Source: a virus
Taxonomy: Duplodnaviria; Heunggongvirae; Uroviricota; Caudoviricetes
Reading direction: 5' to 3' (one strand)
Length of the DNA stretch: 29,309 nucleotides
IMG/VR virus record: IMGVR_UViG_3300018878_000133
Coordinates: 64,001 to 93,309 of that record
In this document: in pieces, positions 3,713-25,225 of the stretch
Position numbering within the stretch: the stretch's first letter is position 1
How the letters are laid out: every line of letters begins with the position of its first letter
The notes under the pieces: model-generated
What the model saw: the letters and a program-made list of their open reading frames with translations, nothing else
Told to the model about the DNA's origin: nothing
The model's database searches: none
Translations under genes and position numbers: made by a program

Positions 3713-3982
3713 GTGTTTAGAAATGTTGTTATTGGAAAGCCTTTAGTTGAAGTTAGCAGTCTGTTAGCTTTAGATAATAAAGACTGGGAAGAAAATGAAA
3801 AAGATTATACACTCTTCACCGATACTCGTTTTCTTCCTGCTGTTATGAAAGAAGCCGGTATTGTAAACTCTACCGGTGAAGTGCGTAGAAATAAACCAGA
3901 ACTCTGTATTACCCTTGATAAACCTGATTGCATTAATATTAAATGGGGTAAAAAATTTCTTTATGTTGTTGTAGGTGAGTAG
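3713..3982 (+). CDS. stand-alone S4-like RNA-binding protein (resembles the TyrRS C-terminal S4 domain)
   Basis: LPAVMKEAGIVNSTGEVRR...IKWGKKFLYVV matches the L..aGl..S.sEaRR...GKk.f pattern; GTG start after AGAGGT. Confidence 0.6.
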   Translation: MFRNVVIGKPLVEVSSLLALDNKDWEENEKDYTLFTDTRFLPAVMKEAGIVNSTGEVRRNKPELCITLDKPDCINIKWGKKFLYVVVGE

Positions 3983-4030
3983 TTAGTATGGAACTGTTAC
4001 CAGCAGATATTATGGATAAGGAGAATTTTT

Positions 4031-5146: not shown

Positions 5147-5548
5147 ATGTTAGCTAGTAATTCAAGCACAGTAAGTGAAAACAAAACTTGTCCTATTTGT
5201 AAAAAGCCTCTGATAAAAATGCCTGATGGAAGTTTTAAATGTGACGATTGTGGTTATATTGAAAAACTATCTACTCTTATTCCTAATTCAGAGCTAAAAC
5301 AATTTTTAAATAATTATAATAAAACTGCGAAAGTTTCTACTGACAGCGACTTGCAAGGCATCGGTGGTCTGTATGGCTGGATTTGTCCTAAGTGTGGGGC
5401 AGTGATGAGTCCTTATGAGTCTTTTTGTCCTAACTGTACCCAACGAAATTGGGAAGTTACTTGTACTACTGGCACTAATAATATTAAAAGTAATTTTGAT
5501 GTTAACCAATTTATTGGCGGTAGAAAGGATAAATACGGGTACGAATAA
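5147..5548 (+). CDS. double Zn-ribbon protein
   Basis: CPIC...CDDC and GWICPKCG...CPNC. Confidence 0.75.
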   Translation: MLASNSSTVSENKTCPICKKPLIKMPDGSFKCDDCGYIEKLSTLIPNSELKQFLNNYNKTAKVSTDSDLQGIGGLYGWICPKCGAVMSPYESFCPNCTQRNWEVTCTTGTNNIKSNFDVNQFIGGRKDKYGYE

Positions 5549-7059: not shown

Positions 7060-7461
7060 ATGTTAAAAATTAAACAAATTATCAATGGTACCTATTATTT
7101 AACTTGTGATAAGAAGATTCAGGCAAAAGATAAAATTTATTCTGCATCAGTTGAAAATAATACTATGGAGCTGTTTTGTGAAGATACAGATGTTGAAGGT
7201 GTTTACTGCTTTGGAGCAACCCAGCTCACTGATGGACTCTACCATAAGGCTGGCTATACTTGGTCAAGTAGACCTAGCTGTATTAATGGACAGTTTGGTA
7301 TGCAGCTTGTTGATGTGATTATTGATAGTTGTGCTTACTTTGCTGTTGATATTCATATTTTAAAAACATTGGTAGAAGAGCATACCGGTAAAAAATATTA
7401 TATTGAGCAATATGGTAGTGCAGAGGAACCTTGCTATAGACTGGTAGAAGAGGTACTTTAA
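7060..7461 (+). CDS. hypothetical phage protein
   Basis: Strong GGAGG RBS; 133 aa. Confidence 0.75.
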   Translation: MLKIKQIINGTYYLTCDKKIQAKDKIYSASVENNTMELFCEDTDVEGVYCFGATQLTDGLYHKAGYTWSSRPSCINGQFGMQLVDVIIDSCAYFAVDIHILKTLVEEHTGKKYYIEQYGSAEEPCYRLVEEVL

Positions 7462-7462
7462 G

Positions 7463-7912
7463 TTGAATAGTGCTTGTATTATCGCAGCTTGTGCAGCAAA
7501 TGCTAGACAGAATAGAGAGCTAGTACAACAAAAGCATCATTGTTCACTAACAAATCTTCCAGAGGTACTCTATAAAATTAGACTTCGAATGTATATTGAC
7601 TTTGAGTCTATAAGATTAACGGTCGCAGTAGAAGATGTTTGTAGTGCATTTTTTAAGTCTATTTCTATACCATCGAAGTCTATTGCTATAGAAGATTTAT
7701 TCACTATTGGAGCTAGTAAATGTCCTGCTGGGCCTGATAAGTATATGGAAGAAAATCTAGATATAATTACTTCTTCTATATTTTGGCAAAGAACTAAAGA
7801 AGAAATTATTGATAAATATCTGGCCGACATTAAAAATAAACATAATATTATTGTTGATAAATCATATATTAATTATAATATTAGATACTCTTGGGAGATT
7901 GACGTAGAATGA
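7463..7912 (+). CDS. hypothetical phage protein
   Basis: TTG start after GAGGT; 149 aa. Confidence 0.65.
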   Translation: MNSACIIAACAANARQNRELVQQKHHCSLTNLPEVLYKIRLRMYIDFESIRLTVAVEDVCSAFFKSISIPSKSIAIEDLFTIGASKCPAGPDKYMEENLDIITSSIFWQRTKEEIIDKYLADIKNKHNIIVDKSYINYNIRYSWEIDVE

Positions 7913-8172
7913 AGAATTTACATATAGAAAACAGCTATAAGATATGGGATCCTAAAAAGATGAAATACATTATATACACCTCATGTTATAAGATGTATAA
8001 AGAATATACAGCTGATGCTTGCCTTAACAGATCATATAAAGGTATGTATGTAGAATGGTGGCTACATAACATCGGTTACTACATTACACGACCTTTTGTA
8101 AAAATTGAAAAAATAAGGATTTGGCATGACCGCTGTAAACATGTAGACTTAGAAGAACATTTTAACTACTAA
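7909..8172 (+). CDS. hypothetical phage protein
   Basis: ATGA overlap; 87 aa. Confidence 0.65.
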   Translation: MKNLHIENSYKIWDPKKMKYIIYTSCYKMYKEYTADACLNRSYKGMYVEWWLHNIGYYITRPFVKIEKIRIWHDRCKHVDLEEHFNY

Positions 8173-8199
8173 TAGCATAAATTAAGAGGTGATTTAGAT

Positions 8200-8409
8200 A
8201 TGATAAAACGATTGGAAGATCTCAAAATCGGTGATAAGTTTTGGTTCACTGATGTACCATATTTAGTGATTGATATGGACATGACAAATATGTCTCTTTT
8301 TACTGATTTTTCTAGTATTAGATTTGTATTATGCCTGGTTACTTATAAAGTTGTCGGTTTTGACAAAAATATTAATGTAATTCAAGATAAGGATAATTTT
8401 CGAGTATGA
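8200..8409 (+). CDS. small hypothetical protein (possible SH3-like)
   Basis: AGAGGTG RBS; LKIGDKFWF...YLVID pattern. Confidence 0.65.
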   Translation: MIKRLEDLKIGDKFWFTDVPYLVIDMDMTNMSLFTDFSSIRFVLCLVTYKVVGFDKNINVIQDKDNFRV

Positions 8410-8792
8410 AACTTTGGATTGACGATGTAAGACCTGCACCTGATGGATATATTCATATCAGAACTGTAAGTAGAGCCATTCAGACTATTGAGACACGAGA
8501 GAAAGAACGGCAGAGAATCATTGAAATACAAGAAGCAGCGTACGAGGATGGCAGGGATGAGTATGCTCAACACCTAAACCGTATACTACACAGTGCATAC
8601 TCTACTATTGAACTCATTGATATTGACCATGATGCAGGAGATTATGCTTCTGATGGTGGTGACTATATTAAGCTCCTTGACTGGCTTGAAGAAACTGGTC
8701 GTAATTACCCTATTCATATTCACTCAATGAATCCGGTAGGTGTTGAGAATATGAGAAGAATTATTCAAAAGAATGGTTGGAAAGAGGTTTAA
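8406..8792 (+). CDS. cyclic-phosphate-processing receiver-like (cREC) domain protein
   Basis: MKLWIDDVRPAPDGY...IDIDHDAG...IHSMNPVG...M matches the DD.R.P...DHDlG...HS.NpvG signature I recall for this phage-enriched receiver family. Confidence 0.8.
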   Translation: MKLWIDDVRPAPDGYIHIRTVSRAIQTIETREKERQRIIEIQEAAYEDGRDEYAQHLNRILHSAYSTIELIDIDHDAGDYASDGGDYIKLLDWLEETGRNYPIHIHSMNPVGVENMRRIIQKNGWKEV

Positions 8793-8794
8793 TT

Positions 8795-8977
8795 ATGGCT
8801 AGATATATTGTTAGACTACGCAAGGATACTTATAAAGCATGGACTTATGTAAATCCGATTATTGAAAATGGTGAATTAATACTTGTTACTAATATTCCAG
8901 GCTGGTGGCGGTGGAGAAAAACACGCATTAAAGTGGGAGATGGTAAAACACCTTTTAATAAGCTTAGATACCTATAA
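8795..8977 (+). CDS. stand-alone Mtd_N / phage-hyaluronidase-N-like protein (60 aa)
   Basis: IVRLRKDTYKAWTYVNPIIENGEL...RIKVGDGKTPFNKLRYL; AGAGGT RBS before ATG at 8795. Confidence 0.7.
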   Translation: MARYIVRLRKDTYKAWTYVNPIIENGELILVTNIPGWWRWRKTRIKVGDGKTPFNKLRYL

Positions 8978-8988
8978 GGAGTTAGTCT

Positions 8989-9348
8989 ATGAACGAAAAA
9001 CGTATTCTTTTATCAGATGAAGCACCAAAATATAAAAAGAAATCTAATGCAAAAGGACTACCTCGGTCAAAGCATAAACATATATATGAAACAGTTCTTT
9101 TACATCGTAAATGGAATGGTACTGATTTTAAAACAGGCAAACCAAAAATAGAAATAATACCTATACCTACTAAGGTATGTACTGTTTGTGGTAGAGTCTC
9201 AGAGACTGATATGGATAGCAAATATTATATCCAAGAAAAGGTAGATGGTCTTCCATTTCTTTACAATGAAAAACGACTAAGTAAGCAAGTAGAGAAATTA
9301 GAAAAGTGGTACACAGAAGACTACTTTGATAAATTTGCTACTAGGTAG
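8989..9348 (+). CDS. basic hypothetical protein
   Basis: AAGGAG RBS; K/R-rich KKKS...RSKHKH and a CTVCG motif. Confidence 0.7.
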   Translation: MNEKRILLSDEAPKYKKKSNAKGLPRSKHKHIYETVLLHRKWNGTDFKTGKPKIEIIPIPTKVCTVCGRVSETDMDSKYYIQEKVDGLPFLYNEKRLSKQVEKLEKWYTEDYFDKFATR

Positions 9349-9365
9349 AAGGAGATTACTATATT

Positions 9366-9440
9366 ATGAAAACTTGTTTTGATGGCCGTAATAAATCTAT
9401 CTGTTCTAGTTGTGGATATTTTATAAAATTTAGAGGTTAA
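9366..9440 (+). CDS. putative 24-aa micro-ORF (MKTCFDGRNKSICSSCGYFIKFRG)
   Basis: Fills the 9349-9442 gap; GAAGGAG RBS upstream; stops 2 nt before the next start; below the ORF-track length cut-off. Confidence 0.4.
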   Translation: MKTCFDGRNKSICSSCGYFIKFRG

Positions 9441-10158: not shown

Positions 10159-10383
10159 GTGACATATCCGTTTAAGATTAATACAAAAGAAGATTTGTAT
10201 AGACTTAGTGAAATGGCGAGCAAAGAAGACTTTTCTATTTATTTAAGTACAAGTACTGAGATTTTTGATGCAAAAAGTTTACTGGCTCTATTCACTATTC
10301 TAGGCAAAGAAGTAAATTTAACTGCACCAGATCATATTGATGCAGAAAAGTTTACAAAGTTTATTGAAAAGCTTGAAAAGTAA
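10159..10383 (+). CDS. HPr-family phosphocarrier-like protein lacking the PTS His15 loop
   Basis: ASKEDFSIYL...FDAKSLLALFTILGKEVNLTA aligns by eye to B. subtilis HPr ASKYDADVNL...VNLKSIMGVMSLGIAKGAEITISA. GTG at 10159 follows AGAGGTG (the track start at 10150 overlaps the RBS). Confidence 0.75.
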   Translation: MTYPFKINTKEDLYRLSEMASKEDFSIYLSTSTEIFDAKSLLALFTILGKEVNLTAPDHIDAEKFTKFIEKLEK

Positions 10384-10384
10384 T

Positions 10385-10424
10385 AAAAGACAGCTCAGTT
10401 ACAAGTAGGGCTGTCTTTTATTTA
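10385..10424 (+). terminator. intrinsic terminator
   Basis: AAAAGACAGC (10385-10394) pairs with GCTGTCTTTT (10410-10419), followed by T-rich sequence. Confidence 0.75.
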
Positions 10425-10455
10425 TATATGTAAAACTATTTTAAAGGAGATATTT

Positions 10456-12687
10456 ATGAATCATCCAAATTGGTTTGATTTTAAGGGCGGTTATTGGCAA
10501 GACAAAATAGACGTACATGATTTTATTAAGACAAACTACACTTCTTACAGTGGTAATCACAGCTTTCTAGTTGGACCTACCGACCGTACTACAAATTTAA
10601 TGAAAAAAGTGCAGGGATTATTTGATCTAGAACGCCAGTATGGTGGTGTTTTAGATGTTGATACAGCGACTGTATCATCTTTAACTAGTTTTTCTCCTGG
10701 TTACATTGATAAGGATAATGAGCTAATTGTTGGTTTACAAACAAATCGTCCGCTTAAGAGAAGCGTAAATCCATTTGGCGGAATGCGTATGGTTCGTCAG
10801 GCGTGTGAAGCGTACGGGTACAAGCTCAGCGAAGAAGTTGAAAATGAGTTTAGATATAGAACAACTCATAATGATGGTGTATTTAGAGCCTATACCGATG
10901 AAATGAGAGCTGCTAGAAAATGCCATATTATTACAGGTCTTCCTGACGCATATGGTAGAGGTAGAATTATCGGTGATTATCGTAGAGTGGCTCTATACGG
11001 CATTGATCGGTTAATTGAAGAAAAGCAAAAAGATAGAAAAGCATTGGCTACATCAAACTTTAATACCGATGAAATTCGTTTAAGTGAAGAGTTACACAAA
11101 CAAATTACGTTTTTGGGCTTAATGAAACAAATGGCAGAAATGTATGGATATGATATTTCAGAGCCTGCAGCAAATGCACGAGAAGCTATTCAGTGGACTT
11201 ATTTTGCATACCTTGCCGCTATTAAAGAGCAAAATGGTGCCGCAATGTCACTTGGCAGGGTCTGTACATTTTTTGATATTTATATTGAACGTGATATTCG
11301 CAACGGTCTTTTAACCGAAGAGGCTGCGCAAGAGCTTTTAGATGATTTTGTTATTAAACTTCGTTGCGCTAGACACCTTAGAACTCCTGAATATAACGAG
11401 CTTTTCGGTGGTGACCCTATGTGGATTACAGAAGCTGTTGGTGGTATGCAGGCAGATGGCAACACTTTAGTAACCAAAACTAGTTTTAGAATTCTTAATA
11501 CTCTTTACACTCTTGGCCCATCACCTGAACCTAACCTAACTGTACTTTGGTCTTCAAAATTACCAGACGGTTTTAAAAAGTTTTGTGCGAAAATTTCTAT
11601 TGATACAGATTCTATTCAGTATGAAAATGATGATTTAATGAGACCTATTTATGGTGACGACTATGCAATTGCATGTTGTGTATCTGCTATGAAATTGGGC
11701 AAGCAAATGCAGTTTTTTGGTGCTAGATGTAACTTACCTAAACTGCTTCTTGTTGCGATAAACGGAGGTTATGACACAACAAGTGGTATACATATTGGTC
11801 CGCAAATGCCAGTACTGACAGGTGACACTTTAGATTATATTGAAGTAAAAAAGAGACTAGATATTTACTTGCCTTGGATTGCGAAGCTATATGTAAATAC
11901 TATGAACATTATTCATTATATGCATGATAAATACTGCTATGAAAAGTCTCAAATGGCACTACATGATACTTATGTAGAACGTTTAATGGCTTTCGGTGTT
12001 GCAGGTTTATCAGTTATGGCCGATTCTTTAAGCGCAATTAAATATGCTAATGTAAAAAATCTTAGAAATGAAGCTGGCTATATTGTTGATTTTACATGTG
12101 ATGGTAAATTTCCTAAGTTTGGAAATGATGATGATAGAGTTGACACTATAGCTCAAGAAATTACTCATTCGTTTATTGAAGAATTACGTAAAATACCAAC
12201 GTATCGAAATGCTGTTCACACGTTGTCAGTTTTAACTATTACTTCTAATGTAATGTACGGTAAGCATACTGGAGCTACGCCAGATGGCAGAAAAGCCGGT
12301 GAACCTTTCGCGCCTGGTGCTAATCCTATGCACAATAGAGAAGAAAATGGAGCACTGGCATCGCTCAGCTCTGTTGCTAAATTAAATTATGATGATTGCC
12401 GAGATGGTATCTCTAATACATTTTCTATTGCCCCCGCTACTCTCGGAAATACTGAAGAAAATCAGATAAATAATCTTGTCTCTGTGTTAGACGGTTACTT
12501 TGCTAAAGGCGCTCATCATATTAATGTTAATGTACTAAATAGAGAAACCCTCATGGATGCATATGAACACCCTGAAAATTACCCAAATCTCACAATAAGA
12601 GTTTCTGGTTACGCTGTAAATTTTCACAAGCTTTCTAGAGAGCAGCAGCGCGAAGTCATAAGCAGGACTTTTCATTTATTAGTATAA
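10456..12687 (+). CDS. pflB: pyruvate formate-lyase (formate C-acetyltransferase), glycyl-radical enzyme
   Basis: 743 aa; [22 protein letters not shown], catalytic IACCVS (Cys codons at 11674 and 11677), [10 protein letters not shown], and glycyl-radical loop [10 protein letters not shown] (Gly codon 12607-12609); AAGGAG RBS. Confidence 0.96.
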
Positions 12688-12705: not shown

Positions 12706-12752
12706 AAAGTTAAAGCTGTATAGTATGTTATATAGCTTTAACTTTTATTTTT
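12706..12752 (+). terminator. intrinsic terminator
   Basis: AAAGTTAAAGCTGTATA (12706-12722) pairs with TATATAGCTTTAACTTT (12729-12745, one G-U pair), followed by a T tract. Confidence 0.8.
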
Positions 12753-12777
12753 ATTAAATCTATTTGGTATACTATTT

Positions 12778-12793
12778 GCTAAATTATTTGATA
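12778..12793 (+). promoter_or_regulatory. candidate late-promoter motif GCTAAATTAWWTGATA
   Basis: GCTAAATTATTTGATA in front of the first baseplate gene; 14/16-identical copy at 25179. Confidence 0.5.
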
Positions 12794-12819
12794 AAAGTTT
12801 TTAATGGAGGTCAGCTATT

Positions 12820-13503
12820 TTGGTTACTAAAGGTATTATAAAGTCTATAAATAGAGCTGGTAATCGGTGTGTAGTAAGACTGCCTCTATTTGAAACAGCG
12901 TCTAGTTCTACTCCAATAGAAATAGAAGCTTTGATTAATATTACGCCCGGTATGTTCAATAACTTATATGTAAAAGATGTTGTTTTTGTAGCTTTTGAAG
13001 AAAACGCTCTAGAAAAGCCAATTGTTATAGGTAAGCTTTTTAAAGGAACTACATATGAAAACGAAACACCGGGTGGCGCGGGCATTTTAGATTCTTTAAA
13101 TGTCCGTACAAAAGCAAGTATGCCTTCTGAAACTACGATCTTTAGGTTTTCCAATGAAGCTGTTTATAAACATTTCAAGACCCCGAAAAAAATAGCGGAC
13201 TACATACTGTGGCTAGAATCTTGGGCTAGAGACCTTTTTATAAAGCTAGATGAATATTTTAGATGTTTTAAAAACTGGACACAATGGCAACTTCGACCGG
13301 AAAACGTAGAAGTTGATGATGGAGACCTTGATAATACTGCTGAGTATCCCGTTGTAGATGCTTTTAAGTACCAAGATGAAGACGGTGAGTGCTCTGCCTG
13401 CGGTGCCTGTGCGAAGTTAAGAGTTAAAACCTGCGTTAAAAACGGTAATAAAACATATAGAAAATATAATAAAATTGGAACCGATACAAAATATTCAGAA
13501 TAG
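12820..13503 (+). CDS. baseplate spike/hub-like protein (gp5/gpV-type N-terminal OB fold)
   Basis: TKGIIKSI...CVVRLP...VKDVVFVAFEENALEKPIVIGKL matches the gp5/gpV OB pattern; sits immediately before a gp25-like gene; TTG start after GGAGG. Confidence 0.65.
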   Translation: MVTKGIIKSINRAGNRCVVRLPLFETASSSTPIEIEALINITPGMFNNLYVKDVVFVAFEENALEKPIVIGKLFKGTTYENETPGGAGILDSLNVRTKASMPSETTIFRFSNEAVYKHFKTPKKIADYILWLESWARDLFIKLDEYFRCFKNWTQWQLRPENVEVDDGDLDNTAEYPVVDAFKYQDEDGECSACGACAKLRVKTCVKNGNKTYRKYNKIGTDTKYSE

Positions 13504-13519
13504 CTAAAGGAGATAACTA

Positions 13520-13912
13520 ATGCGTTCCTATAAGTTTCCAAAAATGTTTAAAACTAATAGTTCAAGAATATGGCGCGCGGACGAGTATGGAAAAGCTACA
13601 AGACAAAACGCCTTGCTTTTGTTACATTCTGAGCGTGGTGAATTTGAATGTGACCCGTATTTTGGTATTCTATTAAAACATTATATGTTTAATCAAAATA
13701 GTTACATATTAAAAGATATGCTAATTGATACCATTTATACACAAATTGCTATCTTTTTGCCGCAGATAAAAATTTCTAGAAACAATATTGATATTGTATC
13801 AGATAATATAAAAGGCAGACTTTATTGCACTTTCTCTGGCACAAATCAAATTGATTATACACATAATACTTTTAATCTATTATTGTTTGATGAAACTAAA
13901 CAACAATCATAA
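13520..13912 (+). CDS. baseplate wedge / sheath-initiator protein (gp25/GpW-like)
   Basis: 130 aa; LLLHSERGEFECDPYFG..LKHYMF...I...IAIFLPQI is the typical gp25 pattern. Confidence 0.85.
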   Translation: MRSYKFPKMFKTNSSRIWRADEYGKATRQNALLLLHSERGEFECDPYFGILLKHYMFNQNSYILKDMLIDTIYTQIAIFLPQIKISRNNIDIVSDNIKGRLYCTFSGTNQIDYTHNTFNLLLFDETKQQS

Positions 13913-16900: not shown

Positions 16901-19900
16901 ATGCCTAAAGACTCATGTTTTGTCTGGACTGACGGTGAAAAAGTATATACAGCCCAAAAAATTAAAGATAAAAACGAAAGCGTTTACTATACAACAACTG
17001 AACCAGGGCTATCTAGCTATGGTTCTGATTCAGACGATAATACACTTGAAAGCATAATTGTGGACGGAGTAGTTACAGAGATAGGTGAGTCTGACAATAA
17101 AAATGATATTACAGATATACAGACTGAGTGTACAATAAAAGTAAATGATATTACAGATACAGGCTTAAAACTAAAAGCTGGTGAATTCGTAAGATTTAGA
17201 GCACCTAATCTCACAACAGTAAAAACTTATCCTGCTTATGTTAACTATCATCTTCATTTAAACGAACCTGTAGCAAAAGAAGCTAGAGCAGCTTCTGCTA
17301 ATTCACTGTTTGCAATTTTAAATAGTGATATGGCCTCCGGATGGACAGACAACGAAAATACACCAATAAAATGGCAAAAAGTTTTAAACCATTTTACCAA
17401 CACACATAAAAAGAAATTTACGATTTCTCAAACAATTTCAGCCTATTCTGAAATCTTGGCAGAGGAATCTGATGCTTGTCCAAAGAATAACGGTAACCAT
17501 AAAAAGGGAACTGATGGCAAATGTATTTATTGCGGCAATCCGATGACAAACGTACAGGTTGGAAACATCAAAGTCGGTGTAGATAACACTATTGTTGATG
17601 TAAATGCTCCCGATGTACTAGATATTTTCAAAAAAAGCGGCTGTGTAAAGCTTATCAGTACTACTGCGGCTACAGCTTTTGTGCAAAGTGATATCAGAGG
17701 TAAGTTACCCGAAATTGTTCTAACTGATAGCGATGGCAAAGCATTTAATCCTTTTATAACTTCTGCAACGACTCTGAGTGATATCAAAGCTAGTGTGGAT
17801 AATGAAATAACGGCACTTAAAGATGTTACAGATGGCTTACCAAGATATGACTGGACTGTATCATTTGAGCTGGAATATGTTCCGTTTGAACCGACCACTC
17901 TGACTGCTTGGGAAGACTTTATTAGACAATGTAAAACTGCGCTAGACAAGGGTACAACTTTTAATAATCAGGTCTTAGACTATAAACCAGTAGAAGAAAA
18001 CCGTACTATTTTGTGGCGTATGTTTGGCGAAGGCTATGAACCTGGAAGATATGTAACAGAAGACACAGAAAAGATTTTAAAGTTCAATAAAAATTATTTT
18101 GGGTTATTAAATCAAAATAATTATCTTTTAGATGTATACTTAGTTGAAAATATTGGTATAGCTGCTAGAGTATCTATGATTTCTAATAACGAAGACTATG
18201 AGCTAGGTACAGGTGAGTACTTATGTATTGAATACACACCTTCTGCGACAACTGATGATAGTAGTAGCCAAGCAACTACAGCTGTCACAGAACTATATGA
18301 AGCAGGCACAATTATTAAGCCAAGCGGTTTTGAGCCAGGCCTAATGGATTCAAGTACATTAGATAAAACTTCAACTAAATCTGTTACTTTTAATGAGTTA
18401 AATAGCACTGTAGAGATGTATAGCATAGGTGCTAATGAGCAGATTGAAGTTAGAGAACTTGCTGAAGTAAAAATTAATAAAAGCTTCTTTAATAGTGCAG
18501 TTAGTAATCAAATTTATATTTATAAAAACTTTGATTGTGCGGAGTTAGAAAAAGCTAATGATGACCAAAGTGGTAGAAGTTATACACTAAAAGACGGGGA
18601 GTATATTTTCTATACCGATAAAAATCAAGCAGAGCTCGCATATTTTACTAGTGGTACAGTAGTTACAGCGAAAGGTAGTATTGCGCTTAAAAGCTATGAA
18701 GATATAGATATTAGCACTATCTTTGATTCAGGTATTAAAGAAATTCCTTGGAAATCTTTAAGTTTCATAGGTTCTAATGATGAATTAATTTTTAGTGAAT
18801 ATCAATATGTAACTCTAGGTGAAGGAGATACTATCTATAGTTTATCATTGGCAGATGGCGGTGACTTAACCAGTTCTGACTGGAAATATTGTACTGATGT
18901 CGCCTATACCGTTTCAGGAGCTAGTGAGGACGAGCTTGAACAGGGACTGGACCCGGTAAGGCTTTCATTTGATAATAATGAAACTACCGAAAAGGGTCTT
19001 GGTTGGGAAGCCCAGTGCAGCTTAGCTTTAAATGTATCAGGTGCTGATTCACAAACCTTGCGTAATGATGGTATAGTCAAAACTAGTTTAAAACTCTCTA
19101 GTGCAGGTATTTCTGATACCAAATCTTTGAAGCTTGAGCCAACTGAAGGAAACACGCTATCTTTTAAAACAAATCTTGCATGTGCTACGAATGGTACAAT
19201 TAATGTAAATGACGTAGTATATAACCCTAATAAGTTAACAGGTTTTAAATTAAAAATTTTTACTGATGAATCTCCTGCCATTGTAAAAACTGAACCAGGT
19301 AGAACTGTTCAATTAGAAAAAGAAAGAGAAACCTTAAAAAACGGACAAGGACTTAGCGACTTCACTAAGTGGGTAGGTGAAACGCTAGACTTAAGTGAAA
19401 AAGGCTATTCTGATATTTGGAATACCGTGGATTTAACTAGAATTAATAGTAATAAACTTGATGAGGACACTGGTAAATACTATGACAATGCTTTAAAGCT
19501 ATCAACTAGTCTATTGCCTGATACTTACGGTCTATTTAGTATTTATATAAACTACGCCAGTGATGATCCAGCTGAAGCAAATTCGATGTCTACGTGGTTA
19601 GAGGTTATTCCAGGAACAAAACATGATGACATCACTCTATTTAATACAGACGAACCCTCTTGGACAAATGGTATAGCACAGATAAATACGGCTGATAAAT
19701 TACACTTAAGTCCAGGCATAAATTGCATACGAGTAAATAAATCTGGTACATTCTTTATTAAGACTTCTGAAGGGTCAAAAGGTACTCTTTCTTTTGATGA
19801 CATTCGATTAGTAGATTACAAGCTTGTACTGGAAGAAGGCAATACAGGTTCTAGTATTGCTTCTGCAACATATGGACTAAACCTAGATCAGTTAGGCTAT

Positions 19901-25142: not shown

Positions 25143-25178
25143 TAATTTGTTAATTTATTAAAAACTTAAATATTATTG

Positions 25179-25194
25179 GCTAAATTAAATGATA
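25179..25194 (+). promoter_or_regulatory. candidate late-promoter motif GCTAAATTAWWTGATA (second copy)
   Basis: GCTAAATTAAATGATA about 30 bp upstream of the 25226 start. Confidence 0.5.
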
Positions 25195-25225
25195 TAAAAA
25201 TGCATTTTAAGGAGATCATCTAATT

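Follow-up and report, generated by a model that had tools for sequence, protein, structure and literature searches.

Record IMGVR_UViG_3300018878_000133 of the IMG/VR virus collection (Caudoviricetes; 93,309 bases) includes, in its final 29,309 bases, an intact pflB gene for pyruvate formate-lyase (PFL), located at positions 10456 to 12687 (+ strand) of that stretch, which was analysed as a whole and is referred to here as the window. The gene is a genuine phage gene, is under purifying selection, and in the phage loci searched stands without the pflA activase gene and the ZTP riboswitch that accompany pflB in bacteria. The reading favoured here, with a probability of about 0.55, is that the gene product would be a deregulated source of formate that is activated by PflA of the host and feeds an anaerobic ribonucleotide reductase and folate one-carbon units.

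The pflB gene and its residence in phage genomes

The pflB open reading frame (ORF) begins with ATG and encodes an intact formate C-acetyltransferase of 743 amino acids. Pfam analysis revealed a PFL-like domain (1.4e-206) and a C-terminal Gly_radical domain (9.9e-38), and the protein scored 1155.6 bits with TIGR01255, the NCBIfam equivalog model for formate C-acetyltransferase (EC 2.3.1.54), which has a cut-off of 994.2. Its scores with all other glycyl-radical families of NCBIfam were well under their cut-offs. The protein is 58% identical (E 5e-291) to E. coli PflB (PDB 1H16). In the alignment, Cys407-Cys408 (codons at 11674–11679, + strand) correspond to the catalytic thiyl-radical pair C418/C419 of E. 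coli, which is invariant across 34 phage-side and 81 other sequences, and Gly718 (12607–12609, + strand), inside an RVSGY sequence, corresponds to the radical glycine G734. The substrate-site residues R176, F327, W333, F432 and R435 (E. coli numbering) are kept in the window PFL and in 34/34 phage-side sequences. The RVSGYAV motif, which contacts the activase, is likewise invariant, and the last 44 residues of the phage PFL are 84% identical to those of bacterial enzymes. The GrcA models TIGR04365 and NF038360 cover only residues 658–740 of the window PFL and score under their cut-offs; hence, it is not a free-standing GrcA. A Shine-Dalgarno sequence, AAAGGAG, lies 6 nt 5' of the ATG (10443–10449, + strand).

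A preliminary description, drawn from the sequence of the window, had recognised a 743-aa PflB with both catalytic cysteines and the radical glycine, and this is borne out by the TIGR01255 score and by the positions of Cys407-Cys408 and Gly718. By every sequence criterion tested, the protein is a member of the PFL family, and the only operon feature missing is an accompanying activase. Altered chemistry, i.e. a reaction with another 2-keto acid or another glycyl-radical reaction, such as that of a TdcE-like 2-ketobutyrate formate-lyase, in place of the cleavage of pyruvate, was considered. Known PFL homologues can accept 2-ketobutyrate, and the phage copies form clades of their own with long stems in phylogenetic trees. 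However, the passing of the PFL equivalog cut-off, the distance from the cut-offs of the other glycyl-radical families, and the invariance of all pyruvate- and CoA-site residues checked make a change of substrate highly improbable.

The contig has a CheckV completeness of 42%, and its sizeable ORFs all lie on the + strand. They include genes for endolysins, tape-measure-like and lysin domains, a gp25-like baseplate protein, a tRNA-His guanylyltransferase, and a T4-type topoisomerase II that is split into two subunits; 18 tRNA genes are also present. Searches with Terminase_6N gave no match in this contig or in two relatives, G001 and G003, and no capsid or terminase gene was identified. An identical PFL protein is encoded by 18 assembled contigs, 17 of which belong to the 0.2–1 Mb class (e.g. 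220,249 and 220,267 bp) and have the same neighbouring genes. The window PFL belongs to a clade, designated clade A, of which six members (P0001, P0005, P0020, P0024, P0025 and P0026; 82–87% identical to the window PFL) were examined. All six have the same gene order, namely many small ORFs, the PFL gene, an ORF of 161–228 aa, a gp25-like ORF of 130 aa and then a gene for a giant protein, whose called length is between 1,473 and 2,954 residues and which in several cases is truncated by a contig end. The series of PFL gene, baseplate-hub-like ORF, gp25-like ORF and giant-protein gene is common to at least 30 related phage copies. The genes 3' of the PFL gene in G001, a 220-kb relative that is 96% complete, are orthologous to those of the window (40–92% identity).

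The possibility that mis-assembly or mis-binning had brought a bacterial pflB together with phage DNA deserved attention, given that full-length PFL matches in GenBank 'phage' records proved to be mostly host flank DNA. Two such records were rejected as precedents for a full-length phage PFL. ON470599.1 contains E. coli flank DNA with the order ycaO-focA-pflB-pflA-ycaD, and MT835515.1 ('Bacteriophage sp.') looks bacterial, since its GC content is 48%, both of its strands carry genes, and its pflB is preceded by a ZTP riboswitch. In the case of the window, however, the same junctions recur in 17 independent contigs of ~220 kb, synteny is kept across phages whose PFLs differ by 12–25%, the codon composition of pflB is phage-like, and there is no break in composition at its flanks. 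A chimeric assembly, which the preliminary description had named as a risk, is thus excluded for practical purposes, and the artefact is the least credible of all the explanations considered. The IMG/VR record, the phage genes of the contig, and the gene order shared with the 17 contigs of ~220 kb likewise uphold the assignment of pflB as an auxiliary gene on a viral contig.

A further PFL gene was observed at positions 7066–9285 of a 61-kb contig, IMGVR_UViG_3300037067_004189 (L017; GC 25.7%, CheckV 9%). Its product scored 1071 bits with TIGR01255 and is 57% identical to the window PFL. This contig is very AT-rich and megaphage-like, with at least 9 tRNA genes located 4–6 kb from the PFL gene, and no PflA match was found on it; a 244-aa ORF with a CxxxCxxC motif near the PFL gene was not identified as radical-SAM or PflA by NCBIfam. 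As judged by its sequence, the contig appears to represent a separate lineage of phages that also carries a PFL gene.

Origin, selection and the missing activase

The closest cellular PFLs are 77–82% identical to the window PFL and come from metagenome-assembled genomes (MAGs) of uncultured Clostridia from gut and rumen (labelled Acutalibacteraceae, Oscillospiraceae, Ruminococcus, Monoglobaceae and similar). In the trees, the window PFL belongs to a clade of 27 sequence clusters that has full support (SH-aLRT 99 in a quick tree, 100/100 in a careful tree), and every checked member of this clade is phage-borne. A second phage clade, clade B (G001, G003, G006 and fragments), includes PFLs 74–77% identical to that of the window, and the phage clades have long stems. 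In G001 the PFL gene is located as in the window, while the PFL genes of G003 and G006 adjoin thyA a few kb past the topoisomerase genes, together with folD in G006 or dut in G003. The quick tree, with 115 rows, is sub-optimal, and the careful tree, with 53 rows, splits the two phage clades with moderate support. When 31 jumbo-phage PFLs were constrained to one clade, the likelihood was above that of the quick free search (approximately unbiased test, p 0.916); the data do not reject a single phage clade. The comparison with Clostridia that had been proposed as a check on the gene therefore places its closest cellular relatives in gut and rumen members of that class and the phage copies in clades of their own.

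The ratio of non-synonymous to synonymous substitution (dN/dS) is 0.025–0.032 in clade B, and 0.043–0.068 in bacterial orthologues. In clade A, dN is 0.10–0.19 and dS is at least 2, i.e. saturated, with 55–76% of four-fold sites differing, which sets dN/dS at ~0.06 at most. Because of these low ratios, it is concluded that the phage PFL is under purifying selection and is kept functional. The GC content at third codon positions of pflB is 0.25, which is phage-like, versus 0.40–0.65 in bacterial homologues. Together, the sequence data make it very probable that the phages have retained an active PFL as an auxiliary gene. An ancestor of the clade of ~220-kb jumbo phages of gut and rumen would have captured pflB from Oscillospirales-type Clostridia, and its descendants would have retained the gene since.

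In 78 of 79 bacterial loci, pflA (TIGR02493; 256 bits in the example tested) begins at or just past the stop codon of pflB. PflA-like sequences were found in none of 13 loci from viral collections, 10 of which are from jumbo phages, and the full 93-kb contig contains neither a PflA-like sequence nor a radical-SAM gene. The earlier statement that the window has no radical-SAM pflA-like ORF was therefore correct and extends to the contig, and the search also gave no pflA in the relatives that are 96% and 100% complete.

A second element is missing. The ZMP/ZTP riboswitch (Rfam RF01750, the 'pfl motif') was detected 5' of pflB in 26 of the 28 bacterial loci scanned; in Oscillospirales-type MAG loci (L024–L094) it lies ~60–200 nt 5' of pflB-pflA, at locus positions ~3800–3990. 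It was absent from all 13 jumbo-phage sources, and in the window no match was seen at the gathering score or at E values up to 10. The ZTP riboswitch senses a shortage of 10-formyl-tetrahydrofolate. Its presence upstream of the gene in the bacterial donors therefore indicates that they use PFL to feed the one-carbon pool. This role agrees with the genetics of Clostridia, in which PFL is anabolic and supplies C1 units, and PFOR is the main catabolic route (PMC4570089). The capture would have taken pflB alone, leaving the riboswitch and pflA behind; with the riboswitch left behind, the phage PFL would be made on the schedule of the phage, free of folate feedback of the host.

The activator of the phage PFL is probably PflA of the host. 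An alternative source of activation is suggested by the near-complete relatives G001 and G003 (96% and 100% complete) and the fragment G002. Each has exactly one radical-SAM gene, encoding an NrdG of 165–166 aa (TIGR02491, 185 bits) and adjoining a gene for an NrdD of ~735 aa (PF13597, ~1e-184), and PFL and NrdD are the only two Gly_radical proteins in each of them. With two glycyl-radical enzymes and a single activase, the phages might be self-sufficient, NrdG activating both NrdD and the full-length PFL so that PflA of the host is not needed. NrdG and PflA are homologous, and the N-terminal 80 residues of NrdG match the PFLA model with 47.8 bits. However, the phage protein is an ordinary 165-aa NrdG that does not have the C-terminal half of PflA, its gene adjoins nrdD and lies ~100 kb away from pflB, and the candidate hosts all encode PflA. 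Moreover, glycyl-radical activases are specific for their own partners. Activation by NrdG is thus very unlikely, and the same applies to its corollary, that the phage would have a host-independent pair of enzymes, one producing and one consuming formate, for anaerobic synthesis of DNA precursors. If it were true, NrdG would be the first activase known to serve two families of glycyl-radical enzymes. In either case, these phages offer a natural system for asking about the specificity of glycyl-radical activases, i.e. recognition of PFL by a foreign host PflA or by a phage NrdG.

Formate and a proposed supply of DNA precursors

The genes carried with pflB point to a possible use for formate. 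The best PDB match of the phage NrdD is 9D3X (5.8e-123), followed by NrdD of phage T4 (5e-113), and its finger loop is of the T4 type, MGCR. Subtypes of NrdD were distinguished using the criteria of PMC4493059, according to which the enzymes of T4, E. coli and L. lactis belong to the formate-using subtype and that of T. maritima is inactive with formate. The presence of nrdD-nrdG in the relatives, with a finger loop of the formate-using type, thus answers the earlier call to look for these genes beyond the window. A requirement of formate for anaerobic ribonucleotide reduction is stated in PMC13689563, with reference to Mulliez 1995.

The NrdD of a host-like MAG (797 aa; L130, 454–2847, – strand) has only ~30% identity to the phage enzyme (L023, 1474–3684, – strand) and matches NrdD of T. 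maritima much better than that of T4 (3e-39 versus 5e-14). Its finger loop, MCCR, aligns with SCCR of T. maritima and includes the extra cysteine. One MAG also holds a T4-type NrdD (68% identity), which indicates that hosts vary. On these sequence comparisons, cells in which the host reductase works with a different reductant may receive from the phage a reductase that depends on formate.

A second group of genes relates to folate. FolD is encoded by the contig itself (contig positions 5461–6321; 380.9 bits, cut-off 355) and by G001, and a FolD-family gene lies directly 3' of the PFL gene in G006 (locus L016). ThyA is encoded by G001, G002, G003 and G006. Fhs (formate-tetrahydrofolate ligase) was found in each of the five host-like MAGs that were tested, but the phage records searched gave no match. 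The one-carbon link put forward in the preliminary description therefore has comparative support from FolD on the contig and behind PFL in one relative, ThyA in relatives, and the ZTP riboswitches before the bacterial homologues.

The following scheme is proposed. PflB would be made from the phage's own signals, and PflA already present in the infected cell would install the glycyl radical. The activated enzyme would cleave pyruvate, giving acetyl-CoA plus formate, and formate is the likely point of the gene. It would act as the reductant for the T4-type NrdD/NrdG, known from the near-complete relatives, and as the one-carbon source for thymidylate, passing from Fhs of the host to FolD and then ThyA of the phage. 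Such a supply would support replication of a large genome that has 65% A+T. Activation by the host, flux direction and a benefit for the phage are what we infer from the observed integrity, residence and selection of the gene, the loss of riboswitch and pflA, and the co-carried genes. That the supply of DNA precursors is the main benefit may be put, on this gene content, at even odds.

The chief competing explanation is that the phage PFL boosts energy metabolism and fermentation, sustaining or raising the flow from pyruvate through acetyl-CoA to acetate and ATP at a time when expression of host genes is shut off, with formate as a by-product. There is an analogy in the psbA of cyanophages, which replaces a labile host protein; PFL, too, is oxygen-labile and turns over, and GrcA-type repair modules in enterobacterial phages show the benefit of keeping it active. 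Such a role has been proposed in virome papers (PMC13069815, PMC13644194). Against this, the co-carried metabolic genes that were seen all belong to nucleotide or one-carbon metabolism; pta, ackA and other fermentation genes were not noticed on the contig, although no family-level search for them was made. The ZTP riboswitch on the donor pflBA marks a one-carbon rather than a catabolic role, and Clostridia use PFOR catabolically and PFL anabolically (PMC4570089). The gene content thus gives no specific support to the ATP and fermentation part of the preliminary description, and the energy explanation, although the strongest of the alternatives, is considered unlikely.

Several points weigh against formate supply through host PflA as set out above. 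The host pflA lies within a riboswitch-controlled operon; hence, the supply of PflA during infection is uncertain. The absence of pflA from the full genome of this phage is deduced from relatives whose PFLs are 75–77% identical to that of the window, and NrdD, NrdG and ThyA were seen in relatives (G001–G003 and others) but not in the present contig, which is 42% complete. As G003 has PFL without FolD, the folate link does not hold throughout. Large phages of anaerobes commonly encode NrdD and ThyA, and finding the two together with PFL could be a coincidence. The host is assigned from similarity only (77–82% for PFL, 55–65% for FolD, and 68% for NrdD to one MAG). Finally, the hosts already own a PFL, so that an added benefit is an assumption.

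If formate supply through host PflA is nevertheless the function of the gene, formate would be a bottleneck for large AT-rich phage genomes in strictly anaerobic Clostridia of gut and rumen, and infection would change the flow of formate in habitats in which methanogens are fed by it. Metabolic genes of viruses are mostly listed and rarely explained, and the present case gives a testable chain.

Neighbouring features and comparison with known systems

The preliminary description had pflB bounded by terminators, and hairpins, each followed by a T-rich run, were indeed found on both sides. The upstream terminator-like hairpin (10384–10420, + strand; 13-bp stem, 11-nt loop; -16.9 kcal/mol, z -5.3) stands behind a 74-aa ORF and was missed by a simple terminator scan because of its large loop. 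The downstream hairpin (12706–12745, + strand; 17–18 bp; -18.9 kcal/mol, z -6.2) resembles an intrinsic terminator, is located directly past the pflB stop codon, and is kept, with altered loop bases, in L132, L134, L111, L113 and L005.

A promoter-like motif conserved in relatives, TATTTGCTAAATTATTTGATAA, precedes the putative baseplate module at 12773–12794 (+ strand), and related copies lie 25–40 nt 5' of the start codons of four other large, structural-type genes of the contig. The general form TATTTGCTAAATTAT(T/A) occurs at 12773–12794 and 25174–25195 of the window and, beyond the window, at contig positions 19019, 43364 and 44495. In the second phage clade it is located directly 5' of the PFL gene (L005, L010, L016). 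TATTTGCTAAATTAT(T/A) is regarded as a candidate class of promoters in this group of phages.

The 74-aa ORF directly 5' of pflB (10159–10383, + strand) is conserved at the same position in L110, L111, L112, L132 and L134. It gave no Pfam or PDB sequence match, and its AF2 model is poor (pLDDT 58.6). By ESM-atlas features, 78 of 100 matches fell into a set containing PTS-HPr (score 0.92); thus, on language-model features only, the product is possibly HPr/Crh-like. A true HPr-like protein would tie the pflB locus to carbon-catabolite control.

Downstream of pflB lies a 227-aa ORF (12820–13503, + strand), syntenic with pflB and 48% identical to its counterpart in L005, for which atlas leads of 0.82–0.84 suggest a possible baseplate hub or spike protein (gp5/gpV OB-like). 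It is followed by an ORF for a 130-aa gp25-like baseplate wedge protein (13520–13912, + strand; phrog_261 3.7e-5, phrog_43 9e-5), the right-hand neighbour of the pflB locus, which is 87% identical in L005 and occupies the gp25-like position in every relative examined. The placement of pflB between phage accessory genes and baseplate genes, as it was first described, accordingly needs qualification, since the gp25-like PHROG matches (~4e-5 to 9e-5) and the OB leads are weak evidence for baseplate identity; the genes 3' of pflB are tentatively described as baseplate-like.

Other features of the locus include an ORF of the dCMP/cytidine deaminase family (934–1332, + strand), assigned from the PF00383 match of the identical gene of L110; its NCBIfam deaminase match is only weak. 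It counts among the genes of the phage for nucleotide metabolism. A 128-aa ORF (8406–8792, + strand) encodes a cREC_REC (cyclic-phosphate processing receiver) domain (2.8e-17) and is conserved 5' of PFL in relatives. In the contig of P0025 (L133), an extra 365-aa ORF (8277–9374) with no Pfam match is found between the PFL gene and the baseplate-hub-like ORF.

Among known systems, the phage enzyme most closely resembles PflB of the ZTP-controlled pflB-pflA operons of Oscillospirales-type gut Clostridia, with which it shares length, domain order, and catalytic and substrate residues. The phage copy differs from these in having neither the ZTP riboswitch nor pflA, and in its phage neighbours, its hairpin-bounded unit, and its AT-rich codons.

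The GrcA/YfiD-like ORFs of T4-like and large enterobacterial phages are, similarly, phage-borne pieces of PFL that need PflA of the host. Short C-terminal matches to the last 60–80 residues of the window PFL were found in ~1,500 phage records, some of them annotated as 'glycyl radical cofactor'. However, the GrcA-like ORFs are radical domains of 80–130 aa that repair the PFL of the host, whereas the window gene encodes the whole enzyme of 743 aa. Among eukaryotic viruses, the Tetraselmis virus TetV-1 encodes a full-length PFL together with its own PFL activase, which the phage clade does not have. This giant algal virus is mentioned in PMC12043954.

The rarity of full-length phage PFLs that the preliminary description implied is overstated. 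The PHROG family phrog_21327, a full-length PFL family with its function listed as unknown, matches the window PFL end to end (6.9e-266). In virome surveys, pflD was reported on a lytic phage of duck caecum (PMC13069815) and PFL on phages of anaerobic digesters (PMC13644194). Like the window PFL, these are full-length, and come from phage contigs in anaerobic, gut-like habitats. They differ in being known at catalogue level, in representing other lineages (52% identity to Catenibacterium, predicted Prevotella host), and in having a role in fermentation proposed for them; the reports include no analysis of the activase, riboswitch, selection or NrdD/folate context. In the literature search, no paper came up that deals with PFL in jumbo phages, and none that describes the loss of riboswitch and activase or the NrdD/folate context of a phage PFL. 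Full-length phage PFLs as such are therefore known, and what is added here is a sharper, testable hypothesis of their function than the literature offers.

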